Part shown: in pieces, positions 21,867-51,809 of the stretch
How positions within the stretch are numbered: the first letter of the stretch is position 1
Layout: the number at the start of each line of letters is the position of its first letter
Source of the DNA: Geosiphon pyriformis uo1
Lineage: Eukaryota > Fungi > Glomeromycota
Length of the DNA stretch: 64,000 nt
Assembly (NCBI GenBank): GCA_016748015.1
Contig: JAAOMT010000011.1
Location: forward strand, 110,735 to 174,734
Direction: 5' to 3'
Program-made: the position numbers and the translations under genes
Notes under the pieces: generated by a model
Told to the model about the DNA's origin: nothing
What the model saw: the letters and a program-made list of their open reading frames with translations, nothing else
The model's database searches: none

Positions 21867-22797
21867 TGTTACCAATTAAAAGTTGAATGAAAATTAGTAT
21901 GAAATTACCCTTATAATTCCTATTATTCACTATTATATATTAGTTAAATCACATTTTATTATTAAATATTTTATTATCATTTCACGAAATTATTGATTAT
22001 CCATATCTTAATTAATAACCCAAATTGTACAAGTACACAAACATAACTAAATCTGATGATCAATATGCAATACTCCGAACTCTAACAGTGAAAATTGGTC
22101 GAAATATGCAGAAATCCACGAATTTTGCAATAATACATTAAAATATGAATTAGTTCTAGGAAATTTATAGAAATAGTTGCAAAGAAAAGAGTGCTAGAAC
22201 TTGAATAAGTACTACTCAAATATGTATAAAAGAAGAGCTTCTTTTTTTAAGAAAATGTATTTTAATATCTAATAGTTCTAGAATTAGATAACAAAGTTAG
22301 AAATCAAACAAAAACAAAATTATTCTTTTTAAAAAACTCAAATTCTTAAAAATATTCCTTTGAAATTTTATTCCGATCGAAACTAATACTTTGAAATTGA
22401 CTAGCTATTAATTCAATAGTTCATTTAGTTTCCCACTAAGACCTGAGCAGAATTCATGCAATAAATTATTTCTAATTATTATCAAAACCATATTTTTTAA
22501 TTTATCACGAATTATTAAGAGCCTACAATTAGAAAGATACTGTAGAAGAGTTGACTTTCACAGCAAATTAACTGTATAACCTATTGAAAAAGCCTGTAAT
22601 AGAGGGATTTCTACAGAAAAGTTGACTTTTAATACAAATTAACTACAGAAAACAATTGGCACGGAATTGGCCATTCCATTATAATCTCAATAAATGGTTT
22701 CTGATACTTTGAAGAAAATTTATCAGGTTATTAGAGATTCCATCACCAATATACTAGCATTAAAACAACAAAGAAAGTGAAAAAACATTTAGTAATA
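21867..22797 (+). mobile_element. Solo LTR related to family A
   Basis: TGTTACC...GTAATA termini, ACAC TSD; shares TATAAAAGAAGAGCTTC, GAGTTGACTTT repeats and TGGCACGGAATTGGCCATTCC with family A. Confidence 0.88.
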
Positions 22798-25900: not shown

Positions 25901-26200
25901 AAGAATTTTAACTGGTAAAAAACCAGTCAAAAATAAAAAAATGCTTTAGCAGTTATTAAAGACAGCTTTTTATAATTATTAAGTAATAGAAAGGCTTTTA
26001 AAATATTCTGTCTAACTGCTTCTACAACAGAAAAAACTTTTCTGGTTGAAACTTTATAAGATACTAAAGAAAAAATATTAGTTGTAGTTTTTTTACTCTT
26101 TGCTTTGGTCATAATCATAAAATTAAGAAGACAAAAAGTTTGATTTTTTTAATTTTATCTTAATAATTTTTTATTTTTGGATCACAATAGCTCAAAAATT
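22985..26200 (-). mobile_element. ORF1-only non-autonomous LINE derivative (HAL1-like); best-preserved copy
   Basis: Decayed ~700-aa ORF (ATG ~26112 to stop 23119) with RRM-like segments and a degenerate CCHC knuckle, followed directly by a ~130-nt LINE-type 3' UTR and poly-A; no EN or RT. Confidence 0.82.
24412..25283 (-). mobile_element. Solo LTR (family D) inserted in the ORF1-only element; three 23-bp tandem repeats at ~25088-25157
   Basis: TATTATA...CATAACA termini; TSD ATAT/ACAT; host ORF rejoins as KNNV|KLFC. Confidence 0.8.
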
Positions 26201-26249: not shown

Positions 26250-26584
26250 TTTAGTAAATATAATTTTAGTAAGATTAGATTATTTGAGTATTGGTTTTAA
26301 TTTTATGTCTTTTTTTTTTTTATAATAACTGATCTAATTTGAAAATTTGGCATATGTAATATTAAAAATATGAATATTATTGTAAAACAAAATAATGTAG
26401 TTTATTGATATAAAAAAAATAGTTATTTTATTTTTATTTTAACAAATACTAAATTAAAAGATAGTATTAAGTCTTGAATTACAAATAAGTTTAATAAAGT
26501 TTAAATTTTTATATCTGATTTAAATTTAAATTTTTTGGATTTTAATATTGTAATTATTATAAATAATAATATAATTAAGTATAT
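26250..26584 (+). pseudogene. Old LINE relic (ORF1 end and endonuclease start); continues at ~47499-47640, with ORF1 pieces at ~21790-21866 and 22798-22970
   Basis: ATAACTGATCTAATTTGAAAATTTGGCATATGTAAT aligns to the ORF2 start of the other LINEs after G>A/C>T. Confidence 0.7.
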
Positions 26585-28414
26585 TGTTACTGGAGGTTTT
26601 TGGTCTCTTTTCTTAAATGTTGGTAATGTTAATTTGCTGTGAATTCACATTTTCAGAAAGTAGTTGGACCTCCAGTAACTGAATTTACCTTTAAATTATC
26701 TCTTATAATTTGAACTGCTGGACTTATAAGTAGAATGGCCAATTCCATGCCAGTTACTTTGTGTAGTTATGTTGTAGTAAATGTCAACTCTTTCCCAGGA
26801 ATTGCTCATCTGAAAGCTCACTAAAATATGTAGTTACTTTACTGTGAAAGTCAACTCTTTTACAAGAATCTCATCTGTAGGCTACCCTAATGATTGTAAT
26901 AAAAAAAGAAAAGAAAAGAAAATATAAAAAATATAAAAAAAATAGAATTTTATCAAGGGAAACGTTTTCTATCCAGGCCTGGAGTCACTAACAGTTTATT
27001 GAAATTGGTAGCTAATCAATTTCAAAACGTTAGTTGTGTTGAAAAAATTTCAAGTATAATAATTTAAGAATTTGGTTTTCGAATATTTAATTTTTATTTG
27101 ATTTTGTAAAAGGTGATTTGTTTCAATTAAGATATCTAAAGTAAGATACTATGGTAAAATACTATGAGAAGATATATTTTCTTAAAGAAAGAAGCTCTTC
27201 TTTTATACAACTTGTTGTAGTATTAGTCTTTGAACTTGCACTTTTCTCTTTTCTATAATTTGGGTGAACTAAAGATATATTTTGGCAAACTACAAGTTAT
27301 TTCTACAAATTATTGATTATTTCAGTGTTACAGGTAATTATTTGAGTCTCAAAGCAAATAACAAACCTGTAACTTAGTGCTCAATTGATATATTGATTGG
27401 TAATATCTGAAGGTTGTTGGTATCTGAAGGTTTTGGGTTAAGTCCTTTGTATAATAAACAAAAATTCAAGTGTTGTCTTTCCAATAGCCTCCCAGAATTA
27501 CAATTCCATCAAATTTTTTTCTCAGTGTGATGGCTAGTAATCTTGGCAGAGATGCCCTTCTGGTAAGCTATCTGTTAATATATATAATTCTTATACCCTT
27601 TCTTTGGGGTTTTTTACCAATGTTACAGGTAATTATTTCTGTAGTGGAATTAAATAACAAATCTGTAACTTGGTGCTCAAATCAAGTCGTGGGTGATAAT
27701 GATCTGAAGGTTTGTATCTGAAGGTTTTTGTATCTGAAGGTTTTGGTCAAGTTCTTTGTATAATGGACAGAGATTCAATGGTGAGAGTTTTATTCATAGC
27801 TTTCTGAAACTGCAGTTTCATCAATTTTTTTCTCAGCTTGATGGCCGGTATTCCTCCTGGTAAGCTATCCTCAATCGAGTGTTCTACCCTTATTTCTGGG
27901 TCTTTTACCAGTCATGTTTATCCTGACATTAGTGCCCCGTGCATTAATCCTCAATAGAGTTAGTAAACAACAATAAACTCAAAGTAAGAAAATAAAGAAA
28001 AGAAAAGAAAATAAAGAAAGAAAAGAAATAAGTCAAGGCAATTTGCAAGTTAGTATTCTGTCAATAGCCATGATTAAGAACTATTATTCCAGTGTGGTTA
28101 AGTGTTGATTACTATTAACATGAAATATTGATAGTGGAAATGGATTTAAGATAACAAATAGTTATTTATTAGATGGTTGTGATTTGGTGAGTTGCTTAGA
28201 TTAAATCTAAACTTGGGAGATCTGTTTTTTCAGCTTCTAATCCTACTGCTATATATACATAATTGAGATTCCTCAATTCTTCAATTCTTTGCAACAGGAA
28301 TCCTGGGATTTCTGATGAGAGGAATTCTGGAATTCCACATTTACTATGTCTATCTCTGATTGGCTAATATTTATTGACTAATAATACTATATTTCCTATA
28401 TTCTATGAGTAACA

Positions 28415-28430
28415 TTATTCCCTCCTTTTA
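28415..28430 (-). promoter_or_regulatory. Polypurine tract of element B
   Basis: AAAAGGAGGGAATAA immediately before the 3' LTR. Confidence 0.85.
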
Positions 28431-28433
28431 ATA

Positions 28434-29087
28434 TTAAGCTCCATCAAAATCTAATTTTTTTAATTCCTCCTCTTGAAGTATTTTCTGAATTTTGTTTTTG
28501 AAAATTACTTGTGTTATTTGAGTCTGTAATTCTTCAAATTGAGCATTGGTGATTTTTCTTAATTGATTACTGGTAATCATATTCATTGCTTTGTTGAGTA
28601 GGATTTCTGGTCGATTCTGAAATGCTGTGTGTATTCGGTATATAGCTCGAGCTTGTGTAGATAAGTTGTTTTTCTCCACAAAATATTCTAGTTGTTGTCA
28701 TATTGTTGTATCAAATAACTGCTTTGTTTTATCTGTATATAAGTTCTAGATATTCACGTGTTGTCCCAAGTAAAAGTAACAATAATTTTTTGGAAATTGT
28801 TGTGTCCACCAAGTCCAAGTTTCTCTGGTAAGTTCTTGGTGTAATCTGACTATTTGTTGTTCTTTTATGGCCACTTTTATTTTGGTTATGATCTTGTCAA
28901 CAACATTTTCAAGTCTTTTCTGTGCTTTGTTTTGTGGTATCTTTGCCATATTTTTGTAATGAATAGTTTGTTGATTAATGGTAATTTTCATCTCCTGGTG
29001 TTGAATTAATTGAAAAATTTGTTGGGTTAGTGAATGGATATTGTCTGTAATTTCCATTTTTCTGATCTCTTCTGTCACGTTGACCAT
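28434..29087 (-). pseudogene. Element B extra ORF3 (env position), helical protein of unknown function, two internal stops
   Basis: ORFs 28746-29114 and 28434-28679 are in frame; motifs shared with ORF3 of element A. Confidence 0.75.
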
Positions 29088-29110
29088 GTTCTTATATATT
29101 CTTTTGTCAA

Positions 29111-32100
29111 TCAATTGGATGTGTTGTTGTCAATGATAATGATTGGTTCCAGATCTTGTGGAATCTCATTTAGTTGGACTAGTATTCTTTGTACTCTTAA
29201 TTGTAGAATATTACTGGTGAATGATGATGCTATATGGTGGTATGGTTTCAGTTGATCTCTATGTGCTGCTTTGGTCAAGATTTTGTTATTCAATCTTAAT
29301 TTGTAAGCTCCATTTCCTAGAATTTCTTCTATGTAAAATGGTTTGTCCCATTTGGGATCAAATTTTCCACTCCATTGTTTTTCCACTTTGGTACGATGTA
29401 GTAGTATTTTGTTTCCAATTTTGAATTCAACTGGTTTATCTGGTAGTTGGTTATCATGTCTTTCTTTTTGTTTCTCTTGTGACTTTTGTATATTATTAGC
29501 TGCTCTTCGTCATTTGTTTTTTAATGTTTCCATTAAGTTATATGTTCTTCTCAACAATGTGTTTCTGAAATTTTCTTTTGTTATTGGTTCGGTTGGGTAT
29601 GTGCTAACTTTTATTTCTACTGGTAGTGTTGCTGTTCTATTATATATTAATTTAAATGGTGTTGTTTGTGTAGTATCTTGCTTTATTGTCTGATAAGCAA
29701 ATAGTACTGATAGTATCAACAAATCCCAATTGTTCTGGTTTTCTTGGCTGAGCTTAGCTATTGTTTCACACAATGTTCTGTTGAATCTTTCAACTAATCC
29801 GTTGGTTTGTAGATAATATGGTAATGAGAGTGGTCTCTTAATTCCGAATTTTTGGCTTAATTCTGTTAATGTTCTGTTCACAAAATGAGTTCTTTGGTCT
29901 GATAATAATTCCTTTGGACATCCATGTTGACAAATCAAATCCTGGTAAATGAATTTGGCAATGGATTCTGCATCCGCTCTTTGAATTGCTTTTGCCTCTG
30001 GCCATTTAGTAAGATAGTTCATGGCTACTGCTATGTATCTGTTTCCTCTGCTGGTAATTGTTAATGGTCTGACTAAATCAATTCCAATATGGTCAAATGG
30101 TTGTTCTACTTTGATTGGTCTTAATGGTTCACTGGGTTTCATATTTCCTCTTCGCTGACAAACATCACAATTTTGAACATATTGAATGATGTCTAGATAC
30201 ATTGATGGCCAATAGTATCTTTTTCTGGTTCTTTTCATAGTTGCTTCTTTGTAAAATTGTCCTGCTGTTGAATTTGAGTACATGTTGAATAATATTGTCT
30301 TTTTTTCTGGCTCTGTAATTACTCTGATTGGTTGCTCTAGATTTCTTCTATTTTTCTGATAAAGTATATTTTGGTGAGTGATAAAATATTTTGATTGTTG
30401 TTTAATACTCTTTTGTTCCATTTGAGATAAATTCTCCTTGAACTGTTGAGTGTTTATATAATGTTGCAGTTGTTAATATTTTTATATGTTCATCTTTTGT
30501 TATATTTTTTATTGGTATTGTTTTGGTTTTGTTATATTTTTGGATTTGAAATGTTCTTAGATTTGTCTTATTCATGACAAACCATTAACATTTCTGTTGT
30601 TTTTTCCCTTTTTATAATGTATAGTATAATTATATGGTGTGAGTGCCATTTTCTATCTTGACTGTCTTCTATCTCCAAATTCTTGTTTTTGAAGTGATGT
30701 TAATCCTTTGTGATCTGTGTATATTTCAAACTTCTGGCTCAAGTATTCTTTCTATTTTATGACTGCCCAATATATTGCTAAGTGTTCTTGCTCTGGTGTT
30801 CCATAGTTCTTTTCGGCTGGTGTTAAACCTCTGCTGGCATATGCTACTAAATGTTCTCTGCTGTCTAGTCCTCTCTGAGATAGTACTGCTCCCAATGCTT
30901 GGCCGGATGCATCAGTGGTGATAATGAATGGTTTGCTGTGATCTGGATAGATTAGTACTGGGGCTTGAATGAGCTTTCTTTTCAGAATATTGAAAGCTTC
31001 TTGTTGACTTTCTGTCTATTCATATTTTGTATTCTTGGTTTGCAGTTGGTTAAGTGGTTGTGCTATCTTGGAAAAGTTCTTGATAAAATGTTGATAGTAG
31101 CTGGCAAATTCCAAGAATGATTTTAGTTCTGTCATATTGGTCAGCACTGGAAAGTTTTTTACTATTTCTATTTTCTCTGGATCCATTTTGATGCTGTTTT
31201 TGCTGACTATGTGTCCCAAGAATTTTAGTTCTGTCTTGCCAAAGAAGCATTTCATTGCATTTAACTTTAATCCTGCTCTTCTTAGTCTCTCGAATACTTG
31301 TTGAAGATGATAAAGATGATCATCAAATGTTTTTGAGAATACATTGGTGTCGTTCAAGTATACAACTACTGATTTCCACAATAAGCCAGTATAAACAATT
31401 TCCATTAGCTGTTGGAAAGTGGCTGGTGCATTGGTTAAACCGAATGGCATCACTTCAAATTCGAAATTCTTTTCTCTCATGGTGAATGCCATCTTTTCTT
31501 TGTCAGCTGAATCCATGGCTACTTGTCAGTAACCACTGTCCAAATCTAATGTTGAGAACCATTTATTCCTGTCAAAAGCATTAAATAATTTTTGTATCTG
31601 TGGAGTTGGATAGCTGTCTCCACGAGTTATATCATTGAGTTTTCTGTAGTCCACACAAAATCAGATCTTTCCATTTTTCTTACAGACGAGTACCACTGGT
31701 GATAACCATGGACTTATTGATGACTAAATTAGTCCGTTGTTAAGCATTTGGTTTATCTCTTGACAAATAATCTCGTGATTGGCTGGTGGCACTTTGTATG
31801 CTCTTTGTTTAATTGGCATTGCCTTTCCAGTCTTGATCTGATGCTGGATGATATCAGTTTGGCCAAACTCATTTTTACTGGCAAAGATGTCATTGAACTG
31901 GTTGAGCAACATCTTGAGTTGCATATATTGGAGTGGATCTAGATTTTCCATGTTCATTTGTTCTAATTGTTCTGGTTGGAGCAAATAACATTTGTCTCAT
32001 CCATAGATTGTTTGTGATGTGATGTCAACATATCCACAAAGTTGTGGAAAGTCTGGAATGGGGTTTGGTGGTTGATCATCTATTTCAGTATTTAAGTATC

Positions 32101-35100
32101 CAATGGTGGTTCCGTTTGGTATTACTATAACATTTCCTGTGTTGTTGTAGATGGGAATTTTGATGTGGCTGTAATCTTTGGCTGGTATGTGGAGATTGAT
32201 GAGTCCAATCTCTCCTGATTTGCAAAGAGTTGGTTCTGCTTCAAAAATCTGATTCTGTTCTTTTACCTTCTTTTTTATTGCTAGCATGTATTGGTTATAT
32301 GATGGAATAGAAATAGCTTGACTGATTGAGATAATTTCTCCTTGGCTAATAATTTCTTTCTCCATCATATTAATTGGTATATCTATTTTACCCATTAACC
32401 CAAATCTTTGTATCCCTCTTGTTGTTATTCCTAACTCTTCTCTGTTTCCCACTGGTACTAATTGAGCTATTTTAACCAAAGGTAAGAATATTGCCTGTGC
32501 TATTTTTTCATTTGGCTCTATTATATAGGCCTTTTCTGAGTTATTTTATAGCATGGTGATGATATTTCCTATATATCTTGCATCAATTATTCCTCTTCTT
32601 ATATTAATCTCTCTTTTTGCTAAACTACTCCTAGATGTTAATTGAACCATTGTTGTTGCCAGAATTTTTAGTGCTACTTTTAGATCAATGCAGGTGCATG
32701 AATGTGGTTCCAATTTGATGGCCTCTTTTTCTGGATACCTCAGATCAAATCTGGCATCAGTATTATGTGCACGTTCAGACCTGATACCCTTATCATTATT
32801 ACTAAACCATTTTAGTTCTAATTTCCTGGTGAGGTCAGAGATTGCGATATATTGTTTGCATTTTGTATCGGAGTTTAAATCTGAATTGGAATCAGTATTG
32901 TTGTTGTTGCCATATTGAATGAAGCTGGAACCAGTGTTTTCATTGTCGTCGTTGTCGGAGTTTGAATTGGGATTGAAAATTGATTTCAATTCTGATGCGC
33001 AGCTGCTGATTGGTTTTTCATTTTCAGAGATTGTGTAGATCATGCATGGTGGTGGATTGTAAATGAGGTTACAATCATTACAATACTCAAAGTCACTGGG
33101 AATTAAACAATGGCAACCAGTCTTGTATTCAACTGTGCTAACCATTGTTTTTGTTCTTCTCTAGTGGATGCCAGGTTCTGGTAGTGTTCGTAGAACTTTT
33201 CTGGTTCCAGAAAATTTATGACTGGCTCTGCGTTCCAGTCAAGCTTGATGGGTTTTGGTGGGTTGTTTTTAATTATCCTGATTTTTTCTGGCGACGCGTC
33301 TTCAATTTTGGCACTTGCCATTCGCTATAATTCATCATCGTTGTGTAGATAACTGTCCAATCATTGTACAGTTCTTCTCCAAGTGGCTTTTATCGGCATC
33401 TCTTTTTGTACCCAGTTGCTAATAAGAATTGTGTATTGACATGATATGTCACATGTTCCTCCATGTCCAGGAATATTGTTCCACATTCCTTCATTGAGGA
33501 GGGTCTCCCCACAAGCTAAGCATGATTGGTTGTCCTATTTTCCTATATGTTCTGGTCTCCCAAAGCATTCAAGGATGCATGGGCAGCAATAGAACTTAGT
33601 TGCCATTGAATATTCCTTATTGTCGCCACAGCATGTGCCCATTGACGACAACTTCTTGCCGCAATCGACGCATATAAGCTTAGATCAACAATAGTTAGAT
33701 CATTATGGTATAGTGTAGGTATTATAAGTGATGGTGGTTTAGATGGTCTCTTCTTCTCTTTCTTTTCCTTTCCCTTTATCTTCTTTGTTTTCTTCCCATT
33801 CCCAGCTGGAAGTTAATTCACTCTTATTATTGTCAGTCCATGTCAAATCATCAGTTTTCCAGGTAAGTTCTTTCTTCTGTTTTCTTTTCCCGTCATCATT
33901 TCAGGCAAGTATTGGCAGCAGTTTGTTGTGGTCGATGTCAGTTCATAACACTTGGTATGCTTCTCAGGTAGGTTTTGGCTTTCTTCCTTGAAGTCAATTA
34001 GTGGTGTTGTGGTATTGGTTGCCTTGAAGTGGCCACACATGGCTAGTACCCGTGTGTGTCATCCATTCTGACTGAGCTGAAGTTCTTGTGTGGTCCAGTC
34101 AAGCACAGTATTGGTTTTGACTAGCCAATTATTACCAACTAGTGCTTGGTACTGAATTGCTTCTATTACCAAAATCTTAATGGGGGTAACAATGCCATTG
34201 ACTTCAATTGAGAAGTCATCAATTTCGCCAATAGGTGTTTTCGTGGTGCCATCTGCAGTGATAATTCTAGTGCTGGCAGTCCAATCAACTTGGTGACCTA
34301 ATTGATTCATGAGTTGCTTGGTAATAATGCTGTCTGCTGAACTGCTATCAAGGATGAGTTTGATAGGGTGTCCATCTACTTTTGCATCAGTGTACATTGC
34401 TGTAATGGGTTTCTCTTCAAGGGCGGCTCCACTGAATAATATTAATGGGAATGGTTCTTCAAGTTCAAAAAGAAAAATAGCTGCTAAGGATTCATTATTG
34501 GTGACAGTGACTGGAGATATGTTGCTGGTAAGTATCACTTGTTGGTTGGTTTCTGAATGGTTGGAAGTGGTGTCTTCTGGGATAACCAGGAGACTTAAAT
34601 AGTTCTGGAAATTTGGGTTTTGGGTGGCACTGGTACCCGAATTCTGAGAACGCAATCCTGATGGTGGATTAGAAGAACTGGGGATCAGTTGGTGGACAAC
34701 CATTACTGATCTCCAGTTTTGTGTGATTCTAAGTTTGGTGTCCTGATGTCATATTAACTAAATTTTGGGGCGGCGTCTAAATTGATTGGGGTTGATAAAT
34801 TACTTGAGGCTGCGGCTAATAAATGACTGGTGGTTGTGGTGGATAAATTGTTGGTGGCTGCGGCTAATAAATTGGAGGTTAATATACTGGTGGTTGATAG
34901 ATTGGCTGCTGCATTATGGGCAGGTAAGTGGTTTGATATTGGTCTTGATTTGGGTGGCAATTCTGAGTCTGAAATCTGTGATTGGGGTTTCGATATTGAT
35001 TTTCTGATCATGGATTGTTGCTATAAAATCTGCAGTCTGCTCTTATGTGTCCTTGTTTACCACAATTATGGCAAATATGTGTTTCTGGCTGCCACGACTA

Positions 35101-36798
35101 ATTAGGCGCTACTGATGATAATGAACGCGACTAATTTTGGAAATGATTTGTATTTCCTGAATTATTACGTTGTTGTGGTGATTGATAAATGGCACGATTG
35201 TTAGCTAAGTATCCTTCTAATTTCTGATTAATTGAATCACTAAATTGTTTCAATTTGGAATCCAATTTAGATGATTCATTCATCACTAGGTTTATGGTAT
35301 GGGCATGATTGGCTTTAGACTCAGCTGATTTGAAATCTCTGGCACATGTAACTGCCTCTTGAAGGGTGCTTAAATGCAATGGGCATACATGTTGCAAAAT
35401 GCTGCTGCACAGGCCATAGATAAACTGGTTGAGGATTTGTGGTGCTGTGAAATAGTTGGTGTCAATTGCCTGGATCTGGCACAGATTTCTATGGAAGTGT
35501 TCCAGGTAAGTGGTGACTGTTTCAGTTTCTCCTTGCTTTATGGTGGTAAATGTATTGACTAGGTGGTTGATACTGTTATTGTTGTTGAAGTATCTTAAAA
35601 ATTCCACTTTGAAGGCATTGAAGTCTTGTGGTTTATTGATCAAGCTTTAATATCATAAATTGGCAGTATCTTTGAAAAAATAGGGAATGGCTTGCATTGC
35701 TCAAGTGTTATTCCATCCGTTGGCTGTGATGGCTTTTTTCACATCATTCAGCCATACTTGAGTGTCGTTTTTTTTGCCAGTAAAATTATCCAGTTTCGCA
35801 ATTGGTGTGTAAGCCATTGGATCTAAGTTGAATGGTTGTGGTGGCTGTTAAAGCAGTTGTTGATTTTGTTAAGGTGGTAGTTGAAGTGGCTGCTGAATGA
35901 GTTCGGCTATTGAATCAATTGGTGGTTGATCAATGACGATTACTGGAGGTAAGTTTAGTTGATTAATTAGATCGAGATTTCAGTTATTCTGAGTTGGTGG
36001 TGTCTGAATATTCGGAGTTTCAACTTCTGAATTTACTGACTTTAAATTTTGCTGATTCTGAAGATTTAGAGTTTCAAATTCCGGGTTTTCAGTGATTGGG
36101 TTTTGGTAAGTAAATTCTTGATCTTCCAATTTCTCTTCTTCTTTTTCTTCAGATAGTTCCCATGGGGTAGTGGTTCCAAAGTCTGGTTGGGGTGGTGGTG
36201 ATCAAATTCTTGATGGTGTTGGTGATCATGATTTAAATCCTTCAAAATATTTGCTGTATGGTCTTAGTAGATCTGTTTTCTTTTGTTTACTTTGGAATGG
36301 AAATTGTCCGAATGTTGATATTGTATTTGAGATGGACGCACTTACTGATGTTATATTGATGGCACTTCCTGATGTGTAGTAATAGGATGGAGCAGTTGGT
36401 GCTTCAATTCTTTGTTTCTTCCAGATTGATAGTTGTATTCCTTTAAGCATTACTGCTGGTGTTTGTAACCTTCCTTTGCCTTTATCTGCATAGATGATAA
36501 AAAATTGTTGTTGAGTGTACTTTTCAATAGTTTGGTTGATTTCTCTGATTATTGGTGTGAAACTATAGTTCTTTGGTAAGTTGGTGTGTTGGAATAATTC
36601 TGTGTAAAAGTATTCTCTTGCTGCTTCAATGTTAACTGTTTCTCCTAAGCATTCAGTGATTTTGTCATTGATGTAGAAATTAAAGGTGGATTTGGCTGGG
36701 TAATAATTACTGTTTAATCCTAATTGTTGGCTGTATTGTTGAAACAAGGATTTCACAAATCCTAAATGGTTTGCTCCTATATTTTCTGATTCTGCCAC
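29111..36798 (-). pseudogene. gag-pol: Element B gag-pol: pre-Gag, capsid, CCHC, protease, Cys-rich domain, dUTPase, RT, RNase H, integrase with GPY/F
   Basis: CHNCGKQGHIRADC, LILDS, MPFGLTNAPATF, YLND (YLDD), TDASG, CDVC, GLVERFNRTL. Confidence 0.95.
32385..32800 (-). pseudogene. dut: dUTPase domain in pol of element B
   Basis: Motifs DARFDL, RSSLA, GIIDARYIG, KIAQ, RGIQRFG. Confidence 0.92.
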
Positions 36799-36847
36799 TT
36801 TTAGATAGTGTTTGTTGATGTTGGTTCTCTGTAAGATTATATTTCAC

Positions 36848-36860
36848 AGGGAGCACCAAA
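36848..36860 (-). promoter_or_regulatory. Primer-binding site of element B
   Basis: TTTGGTGCTCCCT after the 5' LTR, complementary to a tRNA 3' end ...GGAGCACCA; tRNA identity not determined. Confidence 0.85.
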
Positions 36861-38566
36861 TGTTACAGATGATTATTTTTGCAGTGGAATTAAATAACAA
36901 ACCCATAACTTGGTGCTCAAATCAAGTTGTGGGTGATAATGATCTGAAGGTTTGTATCTGAAGGTTTTTGTATCTGAAAGTTTTGGTCAAATTTTTTGTA
37001 TAATGGACAGAGATTCAATGGTAAGAGTTTTATTCGTAACTTTCCGAAATCATAGTTTTATCAATTTTTTTCTCAGCTTGATGGCTGGTATTCTTCCTGG
37101 TAAGCCATCCTCAATTAAGTGTTCTACTCTTATTCCTGGGTCTTTTACCAGTCATGTTTATCCTGATTTCAGTGCCCCGCGCATTAATCCTCAATAGAGT
37201 TAGTAAACAACAATAAACTCAAAGCAAGAAAATGAAGAAAAGAAAAGAAAATAAAGAAAGAAAAGAAATAAGCCAAGGCAATTTACAAGTTAGTATTCCA
37301 TCAATAGCCATGATTAAGAACTATTGTTCCAGTGTGGTTAAGTGTTGATTACTATTAACATGAAATGTTGATAGTGGAAATGGATTTAAGATAACAAATA
37401 GTTATTTATTAGATGGTTGTGATTTGGCAAGTTGCTTAGATTAAATCTAAACTTGGGAGGTCTGTCTTTTCAGCTTCTAATCCTATTGCTATATATACAT
37501 AATTGAGATTCCTTAATTCCTCATTGGAGAATCCTGAAATTCCTGGAATCCTGCAATTCCTCTGAGAAGAATTCTGGAATTCCATATTTACTATGTCTAC
37601 CTCTGATTGGCTAATATTTACTAACTAATAATACTATATTTCCTATATTCTATGAGTAACACTAGACCATCCTTGACATCAATAATTCAGTGTTTAATTT
37701 CTTTAATCAGTAGTAAATCAACAAACAAAATAAAAAAAAAAAAAATAAAAATAAAATAAAAAAAATAAAAAAAATAACAAAAAAAATAAGCAATTAGTAT
37801 CTCGTCAATAGCTGTGATCAAAAGCTATTGTTCCAGTATAGTTAAGTATTAGATTTTATCAACATGAAGTGTTGATAAATGGAAGAGTGATTATATTTTC
37901 AACAAACAACAATAACATGGATTTAAAGAATTGGAGAGATCTTTTATTTATATAATTCCATTTTGGTTGATAGCAACTATCCTTGAAATGAGAATTAATA
38001 AATAGAGAAGAAAGGTGTTTGTTCTAAATTAATAAAACTCTATTGAATTCTCCAGGAATTATTTTTTCTGCTTTTAATACTTTCACTATATATATATAAT
38101 TTATGTTATATGAGATTCTGTACATTCATGAACAATGTGCCATGATTTCTCAAGCAATGCTTACATTGCTGAGCAATGTGCCTGTAATTTCTGACAATAT
38201 GCTTATTGCTGAACAATGTGCTGTAATTTTCTGATAATGCTTTATATTGTTGAGCAATGTGCTCACATGCTAAATACTATTCTCTTATTGGTCTATTTTC
38301 TCTATCTGTTTTTCCTACTATTTTCTTGTATTCTTTTTCTATGAATAACATCAGCAATTTTTCCATTAATTTTGGTGAATTTTGACTATATTAAATGATT
38401 CAAGGTATTGTGTAATTTGATCATCTTAATTTCTATAGTACAAATTGGGTTATTGATTGAGTAATAATATTTAATAATTTGGCTAATTAATAAGTAATAA
38501 TCGAAATGATAATAATATGTTACTTAATAATAAAAATTATAAAGATAATTTTATGCTAATTAATAG

Positions 38567-39274
38567 CTAAAATTCTACTGATAACATAATCTCCTCCTCA
38601 AGACTGAGCTCCATCAAAGTCCAAGTATTATCTGTGATGTCAAGATAGTGGTCCAGAATAATTGAAGTGATTTGGTCTGAAAATTGTTGAAATTTCAGTT
38701 CTGTGAGTTTGCCAATGTATTGAACTTTTATTGGTTGCAGTATTAGATTTTGTAGAACATTTTCACAAGTGTTGAACAAATCATAGAGTCTAAAAGCTGC
38801 TCTAAGTTTGTAGTGAGTGTTTGTTGGGCCAGCTGCTGTCTTAAATTCATTGTGAATTTGTTTTTGTACAGTCTTAGGAGTGATATTGGTTGCTTCAAGT
38901 TCTAGTTTTCGTTCATAAAGTGTTTTTTTAATATGAAAATATCTATATATAGTGGTATATTCATTGTTCTGTTCATTGAGAAATAATAGAAGTTTTTGTT
39001 GCAATGTGGTATTTGGTAAGATGTCAATAAGGGCAATTAAAAGATTTTCTTTCAATGTTTGCTTCAAAAGTTCTGGTAATCTATTTTCAGAGTGACTTCT
39101 TGTTTTTCTTCTATAGAAATGATAGTTCTGAGAATTATTTACTACTGGGGCTGTGGTTTTTTTCTAAATGTGATTAATTTGACTTCCATTAATTGTTATG
39201 GATAAGTCAAGAAGTGTTTTCAAGGCTAACATTAATTTTTGAGATATTTGTTGAATATTTCGAGAAATAATCAT
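38567..39274 (-). pseudogene. Element A extra ORF3 (env position), runs through the PPT into the 3' LTR
   Basis: 166-aa open part 38567-39067; in-frame ATG at 39274, with three intervening stops consistent with C>T. Confidence 0.75.
38587..38602 (-). promoter_or_regulatory. Polypurine tract of element A
   Basis: GAGGAGGAGATTA before the 3' LTR. Confidence 0.85.
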
Positions 39275-39429
39275 GATAAAATAACTAACTAATAAAGAAA
39301 AAAAATAAAAAAAATAATTTTTGGTATAAGGTTTTTATTTGTTTTTGGGTTTAAATGTTTCTTGTGATCATTTACTATTTTTGTTTTATATTTTGTCTAT
39401 ATTTTTAAAGAGATTATTATAAATATTAA

Positions 39430-42400
39430 ATTAAGTGTTCAAGTTTTGTTGTTTTATTATAACTATTGGTTCTAAATTTTGGGGAATATCTTCAGGATTA
39501 ACTAAAGGGGAATGTGTACTAATTTGTGGAATTAATGGTTCAGGATTGTTTCTAGAATGATAGTGTTTCAATCTATTTCCATGTGCAACTTTTACTAGTA
39601 CTTTGTTATCAAGTCTTAATTTGTATAATCCATTGCCTAAAATTTCGTGAATATAAAATGGTCCATCCCATTTATGTTCAAATTTTTCACTCCATTGTTT
39701 TTTAGCCTTAGTTCTGTGTAAGAGAACTTTATTTCCAACCTTAAATTCATTGGTAATTGGTGGCAGTTTGTTGTATTGTTTTTCTTTTTGTAGGGCTTAG
39801 AAGTATTTAATATGAGTGGCTGCTATGTGTCTCTTTCCTTTCAATGTGCTAAGAAGAGTGTAAGCTCTTCTTTGGAGTGTTTTTTGGAAGTTTTCTTTAT
39901 TGATTGGTTGTACTGGATATGTTTCCACTGTGAAATTAATTGGTAATGTTGCTGTCTTTCCATAAGTAAGATCAAATAGTGTGTGTTTTGTAGTATCTTG
40001 TTTTAGTATTTTGTATACTAGTAACATTGATGAAATAAAGATATCTCATTCCTGCTCAAAATCTGTTGAGACTTTGGCTAAAGATTCACACAATGTTTTG
40101 TTAAAACATTCTACAAGTCTATTTGTTTGAGAGTAATAAGATGATGATAGAGGTCTTTTGACATTGAATCATTCACAAATTTCTTGTATCAAGTTGTTCA
40201 CAAAATGTGTTTCTTGATCAGATAAAAGTTCAATTGGGCATTCATGTCTACAAATAATGTCTTCATAGATAAAATTTGCTACTGATTTTATATCTGCTCT
40301 TTGGATGGCTCTAGCTTCAGGTCATTTGGTAAGATAATCTATTGCAACTGCAATATAACAATTTCCTTGAGTTGTAATAGGTAATGGTTCAACTAGATCA
40401 ATTCCAACTCTGTCAAAAAGTTGTCCAACTTTGATTGAATTTTAAAGATTCTATAGGGTGAATTCTTCTTCTTCTTTGACAACTATCATAAGATTCTACA
40501 TATTATCAAATGTCTTTTTGCATGTGAGGCCAAAAATAATGTTCAAGAGTTCTTTGAATTGTTCCATTTCTTCTCAAGTGTGTTGAAGACAGATTTGTGT
40601 GCATATTGTATAAAATTGTTTCTTTTTTATTTTCTTGTACTAATTTGAATGGTTAATTTGGATTTTTGCAATTTTTATAATAAATTTTGTTGTGATGTAT
40701 GAAATATTGTTTTGATTGGTGTTGTAAACGATGTTTTTTACCTGGAAACCAATTTTCTGGCATGGTAAGGGTCTCCAAATAGTTTTTAAGATTGCTGTAG
40801 TTTTTGGGATTTATTGTTGTTTGGTTATTTTGTTAGTAGATTGGTAAGTTGTGGTGAAATTGTTGTTGGTGTTAATCTTGTCTCATTCTTAAGAAACTAT
40901 CAACATTAGTGTGTAGTTTTCTTGGTTTGTGGTGTACAATATATTTGTAGTCTGCTAGGAAGTCATTCCATCAAGACTGTTTGGCACTTTGTTCAGTTTT
41001 CTTTTTATTGAGCCATTTGAGACCAATATTGTCAGTTATGATGTCAAATTCTTTTCTATTCTTTAAATATTATTGAAAATGTTTAAGAGCCCAGATAACT
41101 GTAGCTGCTTCTAATTCAGTTGAGTCATATTTGAGTTCTATTAGTTTGAGTGTTTTACTAGCATAAGCAATGACTTGTTTCTGGTCATTTTTATCCAATT
41201 GTGATAGAATGGCACCAAAAGCTATATGTAAAGCATTAGTGACTAGTTAGAACTGTTTGTTGAAGTCTGGGTAAGCAAGAACTGGGGTTGTTGTCAATCT
41301 TGTTTTGAAGATTTCAAAAGCTTTTTGTTGTTCTTCTGTCCATTTGTATGGCACATTTTTGTTGGTAAGATAATTAAGTGGTTTGGCAATTTCTGAGAAT
41401 TCTTTGATAAATTTCCAATAGTAGGAGGCTAATCCTACAAATCTTTGTAGCTCTGTGATATTTTTGGGAATTTGGAAGTTTTTGACAGCACAGATTGTTC
41501 CAGGGTTTGGTTTGACTTCATTTTTGCTCACAATGTGTCCAAGAAAGATTAAGCTTGTTTTTCCAAAGTGATATTTTTCAATGTTTAATTTTAATCCTGC
41601 TTTCTGTAATTGTTGAAAAACTTCTCACAGGTGAATAAAGTGGGCTTTAAAGCTCAGTAAGTATACATCAGTGTTATCAAGATAGACAACTACTGATTGC
41701 CACAAGAACTCTTCATATACAACATCCATGAGTCACTGAAATGTTGCTGGTGCATTGCAAAGTCCAAAAGGCATAACATTGAACTCTTAGTTTTCTCCTT
41801 GAGTGGTGAATGCTGTTTTGGGTCTATCTTTTGGGTCTATTTCGACTTGCCAATATTCACTTTCCAAGTCTAAAGTCGAGAAGAACTTGGCTTTTCCTAG
41901 AGCATCTAGCATGTTATCAATTCTTGAAAGAGGGTAGACATCTCCAATTGTAACACTATTCAGTTGTCTGTAATCAACACAAAATCTGATTTTTCCGTTT
42001 TTCTTTTTAACTAAAACTACTGGTGAGGCCCATGAACTTCTTGATGGTTGAATTAATCCATTATTGAGCATTTTTTGGATCTCTTCTCTGATAAATTGGT
42101 GGCTGGCAGGTGAAACTTGATAGACTTGTTGTCATTTTGGTAGAGCATTTTTTGTGTGGATCTGATGTTGAACAATATTAGTTTTTCTTAGGTCATTGTT
42201 GTCTTTTGCAAATATATCTGCAAATTCAGCTATTAATTATTTCAATTGTCTTTGTTGTTGAGGTTCTAAGAGACCCATATTGATTCAAGAGAGTTTTTCT
42301 TCCAAAAAGTGGTAGTTTTCAGTGATTGAAATAATATTTGGATTTGGGAATAGAGTGTGCCTTACAATTTCGATGAAATTAGAGACAATTTGAGGGTTTT

Positions 42401-45400
42401 CATCTTGAAAGATATTGCTGTGTATGATTTTAATCTCTAATTTGTTTAATAAAACAATAGAGTAATTATTGGGGTTGTAGAATATAACTCAAAATTTTTT
42501 CATTCCTTTGGGAATATAAACGTTTGGAATTAAGATTTCCTGCTTCAAACAGATTTGTTCATTGAATTCAAAGATTTGTTGGGCAGTGGTAAGTTTTAAG
42601 CAAGTGTAAATTTTGTGATGTTCTCCAAAAGGTGAAATGGTAATTGGTTGGAAAAGTTGAAGAATCTGGTGGGATTCATTCTGTGCATTGAGAGCTATGT
42701 TTACTGGTACTGTATATCGTCCAGTTAAACCAAAATCTTGAGTTCCTCTTTCACTTTTTCCCAATTGTTTTCTATTCTTTACTAATTGTAAACCTGAAAT
42801 GTTGATTAAGAATAAGTAAATTGCTTGGAAAATTTTCTCAGCATGTTCAATCCTGAATGGTTTGTCTGTTTCATTTTGTAACATGATGGTAATGTTTTCA
42901 GTATATCCTGCATCTATGACTCCTCCTCTAATGTTGATTCCTTTGCTTGCCAATGATGATCTGGATGTAATTTGAATCATTGCTCCAGATAGAATTTTAA
43001 GAGCAATTTTAAGATTGATTTTTGTCAAGGACTTTGGTTGGAGAATCAAGGTGTCTTTGCCAGAATATCTAAGATCATATCCTGCATCAATTTCGTGGGC
43101 TTTTTCTGGTTTTATTCCTTGCCCATTGTTGTCAAGATATTTGAATTATATAGCAGACTGTTTTTTAATAAGATAAATTGGTGTTGTTGTGATTTTTTTC
43201 TTTGTTTCAAGTTTCCCAAATTCGATTTCTTCCTGGTCATTTTTACTGGGTAAGAGAATGCTAAGAGCATAGCATTCTGGACACCATTTGTCATCACAAG
43301 GCATGATGCATTCTTCACACAATTGAATGTTCATTTGCTCTAATTGTTGAATTTGAGCTTCTTGGATTGGATATGTGTGGCTTGCAATTTGGTGGTAGGT
43401 TTTTACTTCATCTTTATAATCAAATCCAGCTAATTTCATAGTATACTTAATGTATTCAGCTTCTTTCATTTGGTAGACATCTTCTTGTGTGGCTTCATTA
43501 ATTAATACCATTGCTAAGTCAAAAATCATTTCAGCATCATGAGGGTAGTGGTAGAGTTTATTGAGAGCACTGTTGTATGCTGCATCAAATGGTATTCCTC
43601 TTCTGACTTTTTCCAAAATTAATAGAGCATATTAACAGATTTGATCACATACTCCTCCTCTCATTGCAACATTAATCCAGTTGCATTCTTTTGATAGCAT
43701 ATCTCCATAAGTGAGACAAGATGTGTTGTCCTATTTTTCACTTCTTTTTGGAGATCCAAATCGTTTTCTATGGCATGCTTTGCAGAAGTAGTAAGTGTGA
43801 GTTTCATATTTCTCTTCTGAGGAAATACAGACTCTTATAAATGAAAGCTTCTTTTTGCAATCTTTGCATTTTAGTGGAATGTATGGTGGTTTTTTTTGTG
43901 GTTCTGGTGTAAAATATCTAACTTTCTTCCATCTTCTTGATTCTTCAAAAATCTCTTGTTCTGTTTCCTCAGCCCAATTGGATGTTAATCCAAGAGCCAT
44001 GTAGGTTTTGGTGAGTGGCATTTCTTTCTCCTCTTTAATTTCAAATACTGGGGCTTTTTCTGATCATTTGTTAAAAGTACCACAAGTAACAGGTACTATG
44101 GTGTATTGTTCTTGGTATGAGATTTTTAATTCCTGAGTTTCCCAGTTCAAGTTTGCATTGGCCTTAAAAAGCCAATTATTTTCGACTAGAGCTTAATATT
44201 GGGGTGTATCCATGACTAGAACTTTAATTAGAATGGTGATTCTATCAATGGTGAATGAGAAATTGTCAATTTCTCCTACTGGTGTCTTTTTTATACCATC
44301 TGCTGTAACAATTACAGTTTGGGCTGGTCTGTCAACAGTTTTTTGAAGCTGTTGTATTAACTAGTAGATAATAATACTTTCAGCTGATCCACTGTCTAGA
44401 ATTAGTCAAATGGGTTTTCCTTCTACTGTAGCTTCAGTGTACATGGCAGTAATAGCTTTTTGTTCATTAGCTGCTGCATTACTAAGCAAAAATGGTGATT
44501 CATTGGCTTCAAATTTGAATGGAAATATATCTGAGAGGTTGGTATTTTGGACAATTTGGGCTGGTGGAATAGTGTTGTTGTTAGAAGAATTTGATCTTAG
44601 TACTGCAACTTCACCTTCAGAAAGTGCAATTTGTTGAAAATCCGATTTTTCAGACATTGTAAGATAGCTGGATTGAGTGTAATAGTGATTGGGTCTTTGC
44701 TAACCAGAATTTCGGAGAATCAACTTGTTATTTGGGTTGATTCTGTTGTTGTTATTCTGAAATTGATTTTGGGATGTGAATGAGTTATGTTGAACCAATC
44801 TTCTGGCTGGTACTTGATATTGTTGAGTGAATGGTGTCTGATATTGCTGAATTGGTAAAGGTTGCTAATATTGTTGCTGCATTGGTTGTGGAGCTGGTTA
44901 ATAGTAACTGTTTTAATTTTGTAGTCTTGGTAAATAATAAGTTGGTAGTGGAGATTGGTAATAAAATTGTTGTAGTAAAGAGTAATGTTGATTACTCCTG
45001 TTTTGTTGGTCTCTCTGTAATTTCCTACAATCTTGTTTTCAGTGTCCTGAGATCCCACAATAATGACAACTTTAAGATTGGTTGTTGGATGATAATCCAA
45101 AGTTGTTTTGGTTGTGTCATTGTGGTGGTTAATATCTTTGGGGTTGCTGCTGTTGTTGTTGGTTTGTAAAGTAGTTTTCAACTTTCTTTGTAAGTTGGTC
45201 TATTTTCTTTTCAGCTGCTGAGCTGGTTTCTTCAATAGCTAGGTTTACAAGTTTGGTGTGGTTTGTTTCTTCCATTGTTATTTCATAGTTTTTTGCATGT
45301 CTAATAGCAGTTGCTAAGTCTGCTGGTGCATGTGAACAGACTTTTTTAATCAATTTGTCTTTTAGTTCTGCTATAAACTAATCCAGAATCTGGACATCAG

Positions 45401-46496
45401 AATAGTAGTCATTGGTTTTCAATTGTCAAATTTGTTGAAGAAGTTTGTTGAATTTCCCAAGATAAGTCATAGCAGTCTCAGATGTTTCTTGTTTGATATT
45501 GCGAAAGTGATTGTGGAGAGCAATAGAAGTATTGTTGTCAGTGAATTGTTGTAAGAAAGCATCTTTGAATGCTTGCCAGTTTTCAAACGGGTCTTTCAGG
45601 TTCTCAAACCATTCTCCTGCAGTTCCTTGGAGAAAGTATAGAATTGCTTTGAGCATTTTTGCTGCATTCCAACCATTTGCATCTCCTGCTTTCTGGACTT
45701 TGTCAAGCCATTCTTGAGGACTGGTATCATTATCTTCACCAGTAAATTCTGGAATTTTTGCAATGTAAGCAGTTGTCATTTCTTCTTTGTTTTCTGGAAT
45801 TTCTTCTGGTTCTGATTCAGTTTCTTCACTTTATAAGTTCTCTGAATGATTACTTTCGTTTTTCTGTAAGTATTCAATGATATTGGTGCTGGTTGATATT
45901 GATTCCTGCTGTTGAGTAGGATTTTTAGGTGACTGAAAATCTTCTGGTCTGGAGAAACAGTTAAGTGGTGAACTTGGTGTTTGTGGTCGAGCAAGTGAAA
46001 TTGGAAATGGTGTAATAGAAAGTGGTAATTTGACACTGGTTTCTTGTTCAGGTGTTTGCAAGTGTTTGGTGGTTGTCTTTGGTAGTATTGAAGTGTTTGG
46101 GGTGGTTCTTGAGTATTGTTTCACTTTTTGTTTGCCTTTGTTGCTTGTCTCTGTTTCTGATTCAAAGTCAAGAGAGTATTTGGGCTGTACTGGGTATTTT
46201 TCTTCACAATACTCAATAATGTTAAAATTAAGTTCTTGAAAGTAGGTAGCAAGTGTTTCACTGTTCAGGTTTTCTGTTCCCAATTGTGAATAATGCACTA
46301 AATTATTGTAGAGATTGTTTCTGACTTCTGAGATATTGTAGTTTCCAAAAAGATAGTTGTTGAGGCGATTTTCAATATATTGGTATACTGATTTCTTGAC
46401 AACTTCAATTCCGTCTGGGATGTTGAATCTTTGTTTGCAGTGGGTGTAAATTGACTGATAATACTCTAGAGTTGTTGTGTCTGGTGTGGTGGCCAC
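39430..46496 (-). pseudogene. gag-pol: Element A single-frame gag-pol: pre-Gag, capsid, CCHC, protease, Cys-rich domain, dUTPase, RT, RNase H, integrase
   Basis: ORF fragments from 46496 to 41247 share one frame; LILDSGS, WASPVVLVKKK, CVDYR, YLDN, KWDGPF. Confidence 0.95.
42715..43130 (-). pseudogene. dut: dUTPase domain in pol of element A
   Basis: Motifs DAGYDL, RSSLA, GVIDAGYTE, KIFQ, RGTQDFG. Confidence 0.92.
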
Positions 46497-46527
46497 TTTG
46501 AAGTTGTTATTGCTGTGTTATTTCTGT

Positions 46528-46541
46528 GGGAGAGCACCAAA
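46528..46541 (-). promoter_or_regulatory. Primer-binding site of element A
   Basis: TTTGGTGCTCTCCC after the 5' LTR. Confidence 0.85.
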
Positions 46542-47670
46542 TGTTACCGGAGGTTTTTGGTCTCTTTTCTTAAATGTTGGTAATATTGATTTGCTGTGAA
46601 TTCACGTTTCCAGGAAGTAGTTGGACCTCCAGTAACTGAATTTACCTTCAAATTATCTCCTATAATTTGAACTGCTGGGCTTATAAGTGGAATGGCCAAT
46701 TCCATGCCAGTTACTTTGTGTAGTTACGTTGTAGTAAACGTCAACTCTTTCCCAGGAATTGCTCATCTGGAAGCTCACTAAAATGTGTAGTTACTTTACT
46801 GTGAAAGTCAACTCTTCTACAGGAATCTTGTCTGTAGGCTACCCTAATGATTGTAATAAGAAAAGAAAAGAAAATAAAAGAAATATAAAAGAAATAGAAT
46901 TTTATCAAGGGAAACGTTTTCTATCCAGGCCTGGAGTCACTAACAGTTTATTGAAATTGGTAGCTGATCAATTTCAAAACGTTAGTTGTGTTGAGGAAAT
47001 TTCAAGTGTAATAATTTAAGAATTTGGTTTTCGAATATTTAATTTTTATTTGATTTTGTAAAGGATGATTTGTTTCAATTAAGATATCTAAAGTAAGATA
47101 CTATGGTAAGATACTATGAGAAGATATATTTTCTTGAAGAGAGAAGCTCTTCTTTTATACAACTTGTTGTAGTACTAGTCTTTGAACTTGCACTTTTCTC
47201 TTTTCTATAATTTGGGTGAACTAAAGATACATTTCGGCAAACTACAAGTTATTTCTACGAATTATTGATTATTTCCATTAATTTTGGCGAATTTTGACTA
47301 TATTAAATGGTTCAGGGTATTGTGTAATTTGATCATCTTAATTTCTATAGTACAAATCGGGTTATTGATTGAGTAATAATATTTGATAATTTGGCTAATT
47401 AATAAGTGATAATCGAAATGATAATAATATGTTACTTAATAATAAGAATTATGAAGATAATTTCATGCTAATTAATAGCTAAAATTCCACTGGTAACAAT
47501 ATATATAAAATTATAAAAATGTTAAACTATTTTTTGTTAATTTATTTGTTTTTTAAAAACAACATATTTATATTAATATTAGATTTGTATACTAAAGCTT
47601 TTTTTAATATATATTTAAATTAAACTGCAATTATCAACTTATTTATTACCAAAATAATTAATAAAAATAT

Positions 47671-48150
47671 TGTTATAGTTAAAAGCCATAATTTTTATTA
47701 ATTATTATATGTATTAGTTACTAATATTATATAATTAGCTACTTTATTTTTAGAAAGTAATTAATGACCTAATTATTGACTTAATTAATAACTTGATTAT
47801 TAACTATTTTGAATAGCTATATAAGTAATATTTTTTTTTAGTTTTAAAAAAGCATGTTTATATATATAAGACATATATAAATCAAAATAATAAAAATTAT
47901 TTCTTAAAAATATTCAATCTTTTTTAATTTATTTATTTCTCTTTCCTAATCTTTTTTAAATATTTGAACATTTTTATTATAAAAATTTATTTGTTGATAT
48001 TTATCTATAATTGTTAATTTTGAAAATTATTAAATAAATATTATTGAAAAATATAATTAATACTTAATATTAAATTTTAAGAACACTAACATAAAACATA
48101 GAATTATACCAGTATGTTATTTTTTGTTAATAAAAATAATTCAAAGTATA
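47671..48150 (+). mobile_element. Partial degenerate family E LTR
   Basis: Starts TGTTATAG; reverse-complement match to 5480-6009. Confidence 0.6.
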
Positions 48151-51100: not shown

Positions 51101-51809
51101 CCAACATAAAGCAATTCTTGTGGTATCATTCAGACAATTGATTATGTGTTTGTTTTTTCGAATTTGATTAATGCATTGGTGGGTTACAATGTGGCTGATG
51201 TTGCAAATTATTTTGATACTGATTATGTAACTGTCTCTGTTTCTGTGGGTCTTGGTGGTCTGCTGAACATTTAGTTGAATTCTCTCTATAGGCAAGCCAA
51301 TAAGGATTATTGGAAGTTTGATTTCAAGGGTGCTGATGACAATAAGTGGAAAAATTATAAAAATGCTATGTTGGCCAATACTGAAATGCTCTCTAATGAA
51401 TTCGCTACTACAGTAAAATTCTCAGATTTAGATGCCATGTAAAATGTTTTGTGCATGTTAATGAATCTTTCAACAAATAAAATATTTAAGAGGATATGGT
51501 TCAAAGATTTTGATAGTGTCTTCACCAAAAATTCTTCAAGATTTTATAAGCTGAAACTTTTGGTTTTGAAGTTTGTTAAGACCTCTCATGAGGAAAGTAT
51601 TGTCAATTTTGTCTCCCTCATAAAGTGTTAAGGCTTTTTGGACAGTACCAAGGCCTTAATTATTCAGGATTTAATTGACTTTGGTGCAAACTTTGATTGC
51701 ATTCAATCTGTTCTCTCTGGCATAAGGAAATCATATTGTGTATTCAAGCTTGCTAAATCTTTGGCAGCTAAAAAAGCACATATTAAGACTGCTATAGAAA
51801 AAAAGATGG

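Follow-up and report, generated by a model that had tools for sequence, protein, structure and literature searches.

Two decayed long terminal repeat (LTR) retrotransposons, one lying inside the other in the Glomeromycotina fungus Geosiphon pyriformis, raise the question of whether they belong to one complex Ty3/gypsy (Metaviridae) group and what the accessory modules that they share might do. Element A (27621-37661) and element B (26585-47498) both read along the minus strand of a 64,000-nucleotide stretch of contig JAAOMT010000011.1, hereafter the window, to which all positions refer. An earlier note on this DNA had placed two divergent gypsy families with a common layout and dissimilar LTRs at 27621..47498. 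Both elements are real, their LTRs have no blastn match of at least 80 nt at E<=1e-8, and Pfam order together with A-B alignments bears out the common layout; however, B begins at 26585, outside that range, and the two are nested rather than neighbouring, with A inserted in an A-like solo LTR that is itself inserted in the 3' LTR of B.

We consider it rather probable that A and B are defunct members of two families within a single gypsy group, in which a one-frame Gag-Pol carries a helical pre-Gag domain, a 13-cysteine domain and a dUTPase, a separate open reading frame (ORF3) encodes a soluble protein, and one RNA would likely give two Gag forms. Four observations carry this reading: the layout, the homology of the modules between A and B, their persistence under selection, and the depletion of AUG codons before the capsid. 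The module order is the same in both elements, namely pre-Gag domain, low-complexity linker, capsid, CCHC knuckle, protease (PR), cysteine-rich domain, dUTPase, reverse transcriptase (RT), RNase H (RH), integrase (IN) with an SH3-type tail, and ORF3, which occupies its own reading frame separate from Gag-Pol. The features are as follows.

26585-27321, minus: B 3' LTR, first piece, split by the nested insertion; 95% to 46542-47275; left target copy ATAT at 26581-26584
27326-27616, minus: A-like solo LTR, first piece, within the 3' LTR of B; 71% to the A LTR; TCAG at 27322-27325 and 38351-38354
27621-28414, minus: A 3' LTR; 91% to 36861-37661; Kimura two-parameter distance (K2P) ~0.08
28434-29087, minus: A ORF3, 217 codons, 2 stops, predicted soluble; polypurine tract (PPT) at its 3' end
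29111-30330, minus: A integrase (H2C2, rve core, SH3/GPY-F-type tail; no chromodomain match), by Pfam
30580-31900, minus: A RT and RNase H; 59% and 44% identity to B
32400-32821, minus: A dUTPase; Pfam E 8.6e-7 and 5e-4 on two pieces; 52% to B
33070-33680, minus: A cysteine-rich domain; this copy is frameshifted near 33124
34122-34388, minus: A aspartic protease core, by Pfam
35030-35817, minus: A capsid and CCHC knuckle; the first in-frame ATG that the family conserves is at 35817
36490-36798, minus: A pre-Gag domain, ~105 residues; candidate GTG start at 36798; Pro/Ser/acidic linker to 35818
36844-36858, minus: A primer-binding site (PBS); starts TGGTGCTC, as in B
36861-37661, minus: A 5' LTR; target copies CCAA at 27617-27620 and CTAG at 37662-37665
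37666-38350, minus: A-like solo LTR, second piece
38355-38586, minus: B 3' LTR, second piece; 95% to 47272-47498
38567-39274, minus: B ORF3, 235 codons, 1 stop; spans the PPT and ends 20 nt inside the 3' LTR
39431-40700, minus: B integrase with SH3/GPY-F-type tail
40890-42230, minus: B RT and RNase H; nearest solved relative Ty3 RT, E 6e-84
42720-43151, minus: B dUTPase; Pfam E 5.7e-18
43260-43870, minus: B cysteine-rich domain; helical bundle with three zinc sites predicted around it
44080-44520, minus: B aspartic protease region; 57% to A
45040-45779, minus: B capsid and CCHC knuckle; ATG at 45779 is the first in any frame past the LTR
46180-46496, minus: B pre-Gag domain; candidate GTG start at 46496; linker to 45780
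46525-46539, minus: B PBS
46542-47498, minus: B 5' LTR; right target copy ATAT at 47499-47502

Pfam searches of the six-frame translation recovered gag, PR, dUTPase, RT, integrase and SH3_Tf2-1 in the claimed order. The core integrase and PR of B fall in open reading frames of fewer than 100 residues between stops, outside the Pfam scan, and were instead aligned to A at 57-61% identity. In B a single frame runs from the PBS to the integrase through pre-Gag, Gag, cysteine-rich domain, dUTPase and Pol, with 31 stops among its 1972 codons as the sole interruptions; the order in A is identical, and several frameshifts break up the frame as well. Both elements have TG...CA LTRs, a PPT, and a PBS that starts TGGTGCTC two bases past the LTR. 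Target-site duplications of 4 bp flank B (ATAT) and the A-like solo LTR (TCAG), while the two target copies of A mismatch at 2 of 4 bases. All three duplications are thus 4 bp long, with centres TA, CA and CA/TA, and the mismatched pair of A is compatible with a decayed central CG (n=3 sites). The LTR pair of A is more diverged (K2P ~0.08) than that of B (0.05), although the nested A must be younger; the observed/expected CpG ratio is 0.19 in the LTRs of A and 0.58 in those of B. Faster CpG decay in the LTRs of A, or conversion between the B LTRs, may account for this paradox, and LTR dating is unreliable here. Contigs from one DNA run span 30 of 30 bins of both internal regions (68,551 contigs on B and 71,348 on A, with differences that are mostly transitions), so the accessory regions belong to multi-copy families. 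Among 40 listed near-fixed differences in B, 35 lie in frames (21 missense, 11 silent and 3 stop).

By domain content, A and B are Ty3/gypsy members that belong neither to the chromoviruses nor to an env-bearing group. The PR-RT-RH-IN order and a Ty3-type capsid are present in both. The C-terminal reading frames match only SH3_Tf2-1 at E<=0.01, with no chromodomain, and Pol ends about 40 residues further on. Against solved structures, the RT of B scores 286 bits with Ty3, 184 with 8r0s and at most 119 with the foamy virus, murine leukaemia virus (MLV) and human immunodeficiency virus types, a ranking by similarity and not a tree. Ty3 of Saccharomyces thus resembles A and B in its capsid type and provides their nearest solved RT-RNase H (E 6e-84). 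To our knowledge it has none of the four accessory modules, and its gag and pol are joined by a frameshift. The shared unique modules suggest that A and B are likely a distinct lineage.

The modules differ in how closely A and B agree. Amino acid identity is 52% for the dUTPase, 31% for the cysteine-rich domain, 24% for ORF3 and 19% for pre-Gag, compared with 59% for RT, and the corresponding local alignments score z values against shuffles of 76, 36-39, 7.4-8.1 and 3.7-4.2 for the four modules. A profile built from the A family detects the B pre-Gag domain at E 4e-4. Judged from these alignments, homology is strong for the cysteine-rich domain and dUTPase and weak for ORF3 and pre-Gag, with that of ORF3 still likely. 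Fourfold degenerate sites in the A-B alignments are near saturation (94 of 240 identical; saturation 0.31). The coding frames of pre-Gag, cysteine-rich domain and ORF3 contain 0-4 stops in both elements, against 7-18 in shuffled sequence (P<=0.004), and in a neutral simulation at matched site identity (0.39-0.40) all four modules exceed the maximum of 60 runs. The B-type ORF3s form two subfamilies, both with full-length frames. Substitutions fixed between ORF3 subfamilies are more conservative than those seen in one copy only (42 vs 172; mean BLOSUM 0.26 vs -0.49; p 0.002; 83 of 120 proteins used), and the equivalent pre-Gag test, which used 94 of 120 proteins, gave p 0.009 for one of two splits. 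A codon-position test for selection was set aside as alignment-biased. The protein sets behind the selection tests carry a bias of their own, in that gene models exist only where frames stay open. All 360 homologues listed for the three modules other than the dUTPase (120 of 207, 120 of 174 and 120 of 127 matches) are G. pyriformis hypothetical proteins.

The cysteine-rich domain was followed further afield. Its profile had 305 matches among 1.84 billion proteins, of which 150 were listed, and a quick tree of 94 rows separates four lineages, named A to D, with A divided into three subfamilies. Look-ups of 20 representatives traced 17 to Geosiphon (lineages A, B and C) and 3 to ENA records (lineage D: P0385, P0455 and P0470); none of the 20 comes from a described element. 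P0385 lies on a 19-kb contig, reads through PR, cysteine-rich domain, dUTPase and RT without interruption over 1064 residues, and is perhaps a better-preserved relative from a different host. Mean identity across lineages is 32-38% (0.40 between D and C). The cysteines are spaced CX2C-X24-CX2C, CX2C-X19-CX3C, then a helical bundle, then CX2CX3CX4CX2C, and all 13 are the majority residue in each of the four lineages, with D represented by 1-3 rows per column. Because of this cysteine pattern, the domain very likely binds zinc; whether it also binds nucleic acid we regard as an even question. An AlphaFold2 model from 67 rows (mean predicted local distance difference test, pLDDT, 74; bundle 88-96; last cysteine set <50) places a helix after each of the first two Cys4 sets. 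Compared with known folds the model has no significant match, the best Foldseek rows being GATA and LIM fingers at E 0.7-1.6. The second set agrees with the zf-FCS/TRASH clan in its spacing, CX2C-X19-CX3C, although the FCS letters are missing and Pfam gives no match; the zf-FCS signature is reported as CX2C-X14-30-FCSX2C (PMC4047054). The dUTPase is a predicted enzyme with all five trimeric-dUTPase motifs, as judged by Pfam, alignment to solved dUTPases and motif columns over 40 rows. Between dUTPase and RT on the minus strand (42300-42720 and 32000-32400) lies a beta-rich segment like a second, degenerate dUTPase fold, for which hhalign support is weak.

The start of Gag is unusual in both families. 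The pre-Gag frame has no start AUG, and in both copies an in-frame stop lies just past the PBS, upstream of the candidate GTG. In B, the 742 nt that precede the capsid ATG (45779) contain no ATG in any frame (8.3 expected; 0 of 2000 shuffles), and A has 6 in the 1025 nt between LTR and capsid, where 12.3 are expected (P 0.03); the deficit is absent from the downstream coding regions. The 82 A-family pre-Gag domains contain 10 methionines among 8491 residues, as against 2.5% in the cysteine-rich set, and five B-type proteins have none across 167-230 residues. Among 18 A-type proteins, 14 have methionine at the capsid start. Where residue conservation begins, A and B both read AAA GTG GC, with A at -3 and G at +4. 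The A-family valine column at this GTG holds 78 V, 11 M and 0 I, compared with 39 I/0 M and 5 I/2 M in two other valine columns; this is the decay pattern of GTG and suggests a GTG at this codon for one A subfamily. GTG accounts for 12 of 60 valine codons in A (20%) and 4 of 87 in B (5%). A conserved open frame 5' of the first AUG, combined with AUG depletion, is what a non-AUG extension should leave. Leaky scanning that yields two forms of Gag predicts just such a frame, conserved yet devoid of AUG and with a strongly placed near-cognate codon at its head, and a second, longer Gag from a non-standard start codon is likely.

ORF3 is 217-239 residues long. Its model is all-helical and soluble, with confidence confined to residues 90-155. 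No membrane segment was found in four ORF3 proteins (top 19-residue hydropathy 0.57-1.17) and no match to env families, so that ORF3 lacks what marks a retrovirus or errantivirus envelope. A weak resemblance to DUF1016_N (YhcG N-terminal), seen in 5 of 38 members and below the cut-off of 32.8 (18 bits at best, E 0.0028), was not confirmed by hhalign to E. coli YhcG (probability 0.1). Upstream of ORF3, A has TATATAAG about 40 nt 5' of the second methionine, and B has TATAAAA at 116 nt together with a T-rich tract ending TTAG; given the AT-rich DNA, these motifs decide neither for an own promoter nor for splicing. The stop of the B ORF3 lies 20 nt inside the 3' LTR (38567-38586), so that the PPT is overlapped, and the second B subfamily is 4 residues longer.

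These features can be assembled into a working scheme. Most ribosomes would scan the AUG-free leader to the capsid AUG and some would begin earlier at the GUG, so that Gag would gain the pre-Gag domain plus a flexible linker, a matrix-like extension for positioning or assembling particles; taken jointly, we give these two steps about an even chance. MLV makes an N-terminally extended glyco-Gag from a near-cognate CUG upstream of the normal AUG, its extension being a membrane leader. A and B may likewise extend Gag at the N-terminus, from a predicted GUG and with a soluble domain of ~105 residues plus linker instead. From what is known of its family, PR would quite probably free a trimeric dUTPase that keeps uracil out of the cDNA. 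The cysteine-rich domain is predicted with good confidence to hold three zinc ions, two of them possibly in treble-clef-type fingers, and there is an even chance that it contacts nucleic acid or chromatin, whether in the particle or in the integration complex. For ORF3 we predict a separate mRNA and an intracellular role; that it is not an envelope we hold with high confidence, and that it is a regulator is a suggestion slightly short of even.

Several points weigh against this scheme. A retains its 6 upstream ATGs, only some of them clearly copy-specific. The V-to-M signal is limited to one A subfamily (a second has 40 V, no M and no I), gene callers that favour ATG-bearing copies may bias these counts, and the GTG match between A and B was noticed after the fact. 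Pre-Gag may deserve the term matrix-like by its position and size alone. At milder divergence (site identity 0.46-0.48) ORF3 and pre-Gag fall within the neutral range, with the cysteine-rich domain and dUTPase still above it; the second pre-Gag split was not significant (p 0.15), and the subfamily test could not split the cysteine-rich set. A profile from the B ORF3 alone misses that of A, and the ORF3 model is poor (pLDDT 49). Finally, the cysteine-rich domain, pre-Gag and ORF3 have no significant match in Pfam, PHROGs, or PDB sequences or folds, viral folds included.

The main rival to a GUG start is a spliced leader, in which the long Gag would begin at an LTR AUG spliced to the pre-Gag frame, unspliced RNA would still be scanned to the capsid AUG, and the GTG would be incidental. 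Such a leader likewise predicts AUG depletion; in-frame acceptor-like YAG sites stand right after the PBS in A and B, and the public gene models all splice into the pre-Gag region. However, the upstream exons of these models are unrelated to one another, the nearest acceptor in B runs into an in-frame stop in this copy, and the GTG is kept at the homologous codon of A and B despite saturated synonymous divergence. We therefore think the spliced leader unlikely, though it deserves to be kept in mind. The extra modules might also be captured passengers that were never needed, as both copies here are decaying and pre-Gag and ORF3 are just 19-24% identical. That decay, however, belongs to these copies and not to the lineage, and open frames and invariant cysteines persist over four lineages at saturated silent sites; the idea is very improbable overall, and for the cysteine-rich domain and dUTPase it is already largely refuted. 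Hardly more credible is an infectious retrovirus-like element with ORF3 as envelope or movement protein. ORF3 does stand where env would, B has an acceptor-like pyrimidine tract ahead of it, pre-Gag occupies the matrix position and the B ORF3 enters the 3' LTR; its low hydropathy maxima, all-helical soluble model and lack of an env family match speak against it.

It could also be that A and B represent a described non-chromovirus clade, such as Ylt1-like elements or a Repbase family, for which the additional domains are on record, so that novelty would be limited to the host. Fungal surveys distinguish chromoviruses and Ylt1-like elements (PMC3248453), A and B have no chromodomain, and Ylt1 is similar in length at 9453 bp (PMC5014426). 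One such survey reports fused gag-pol and additional ORFs without known function (PMC2864245); a dUTPase between PR and RT is present in PosPlaTy3-5 of Postia, as in A and B, and dUTPase-bearing gypsy elements occur also in Phanerochaete and Tuber (Tmt1) (PMC2864245), with the same dUTPase position and additional ORFs in fungal gypsy elements noted elsewhere (PMC6431247). Unlike A and B, the Postia, Phanerochaete and Tuber elements stand among chromodomain elements of Dikarya, and the relevant parts of the survey mention no cysteine-rich or pre-Gag domain. None of the 20 cysteine-rich representatives looked up, out of 305 matches, comes from a described element, and the open literature yielded nothing on the three modules, on how Geosiphon elements are built or on a long Gag with a non-AUG start in fungal retrotransposons, with Repbase, GyDB, subscription papers and the arbuscular mycorrhizal repeat library of PMC11952901 outside the search. 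An already described clade thus appears improbable.

More distant elements resemble A and B in part. The rotifer elements Juno, Vesta and TelKA share gag-PR-dUTPase-RT-RH-IN, lack a chromodomain and have a non-env ORF3 (PMC5408684). Juno has an extra zinc knuckle in Pol, which is small and follows the dUTPase, whereas A and B have a 200-residue 13-cysteine domain before it. Rotifer ORF3s are described as esterase, exonuclease or env, and the A/B ORF3 is none of these; no pre-Gag domain, which A and B have, is reported for them. Plant elements carry family-wide conserved extra ORFs before gag and after pol, of function not known; many have membrane segments, unlike the A/B ORF3, and the likeness is one of position (PMC7264820). 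The complex gypsy layout as such is therefore already known and has probably arisen many times, and what is new here is probably the set of three selected modules of no known family plus a probable two-Gag translation scheme.

Viewed as a whole, the earlier note had interpreted the layout as a retrovirus-like lineage whose modules were kept under selection after A and B split. Retention holds, given the open frames, the cysteines conserved over four lineages and the excess over neutral simulation (clearly so for the cysteine-rich domain and dUTPase). Its label 'retrovirus-like', in the envelope sense, is overstated for an ORF3 without a hydrophobic segment, and its premise that gypsy elements have only gag-PR-RT-RH-IN is not supported, given the published dUTPase between PR and RT and the extras of Juno. 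It had also allowed that the architecture might already be published: the PR-dUTPase-RT order and a non-env ORF3 are, in fungal and rotifer gypsy elements, while the three modules themselves were not found described. Of the per-module profile and structure comparisons that it proposed, the one for dUTPase gave recognition and the others no significant Pfam, PDB or viral fold match.

The rest of the window is AT-rich and dense in repeats. A gene on the minus strand (13905-17944) has 19 Sel1 repeats (108-bp array) that precede a Tyr/Ser-Thr kinase domain. Pieces of elements like long interspersed nuclear elements (LINEs), with RRM-type ORF1, RT and RNase H, lie at 164-3937, 6687-9602, 48709-56371 and 57462-64000 (at least 3 copies, 65-73% identity). 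Further B-type LTRs without internal region (1262-2076, 21892-22684 and 51812-52793; 65-91% to the B LTR) include two within LINE-like copies. Two sets of very AT-rich dispersed repeats, possibly non-autonomous elements (0.4-1 kb, 67-78% identity), are found at 3937-4933, 10293-11213 and 25283-26061, and at 5280-6031, 47645-48141 and 56641-57148.

LTR elements make up 41.2% of the G. pyriformis genome (PMC11952901). Speculatively, and with low confidence, A and B may stand for a complex gypsy lineage of early-diverging mycorrhizal fungi, with a GUG-initiated matrix-like long Gag beside the normal one, a Pol whose new triple-zinc fold serves to guide integration or to handle nucleic acid, and a separate ORF3 that counters host silencing; such a lineage would help to explain the 41% LTR cover. 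The A/B group supplies three selected protein modules without known family, one of which has a usable model. The GUG start, if true, would be a retrotransposon counterpart to the alternative long Gag of a retrovirus. At least 360 public G. pyriformis 'hypothetical proteins' are fragments of these elements, and the gene count of this fungus is inflated accordingly.

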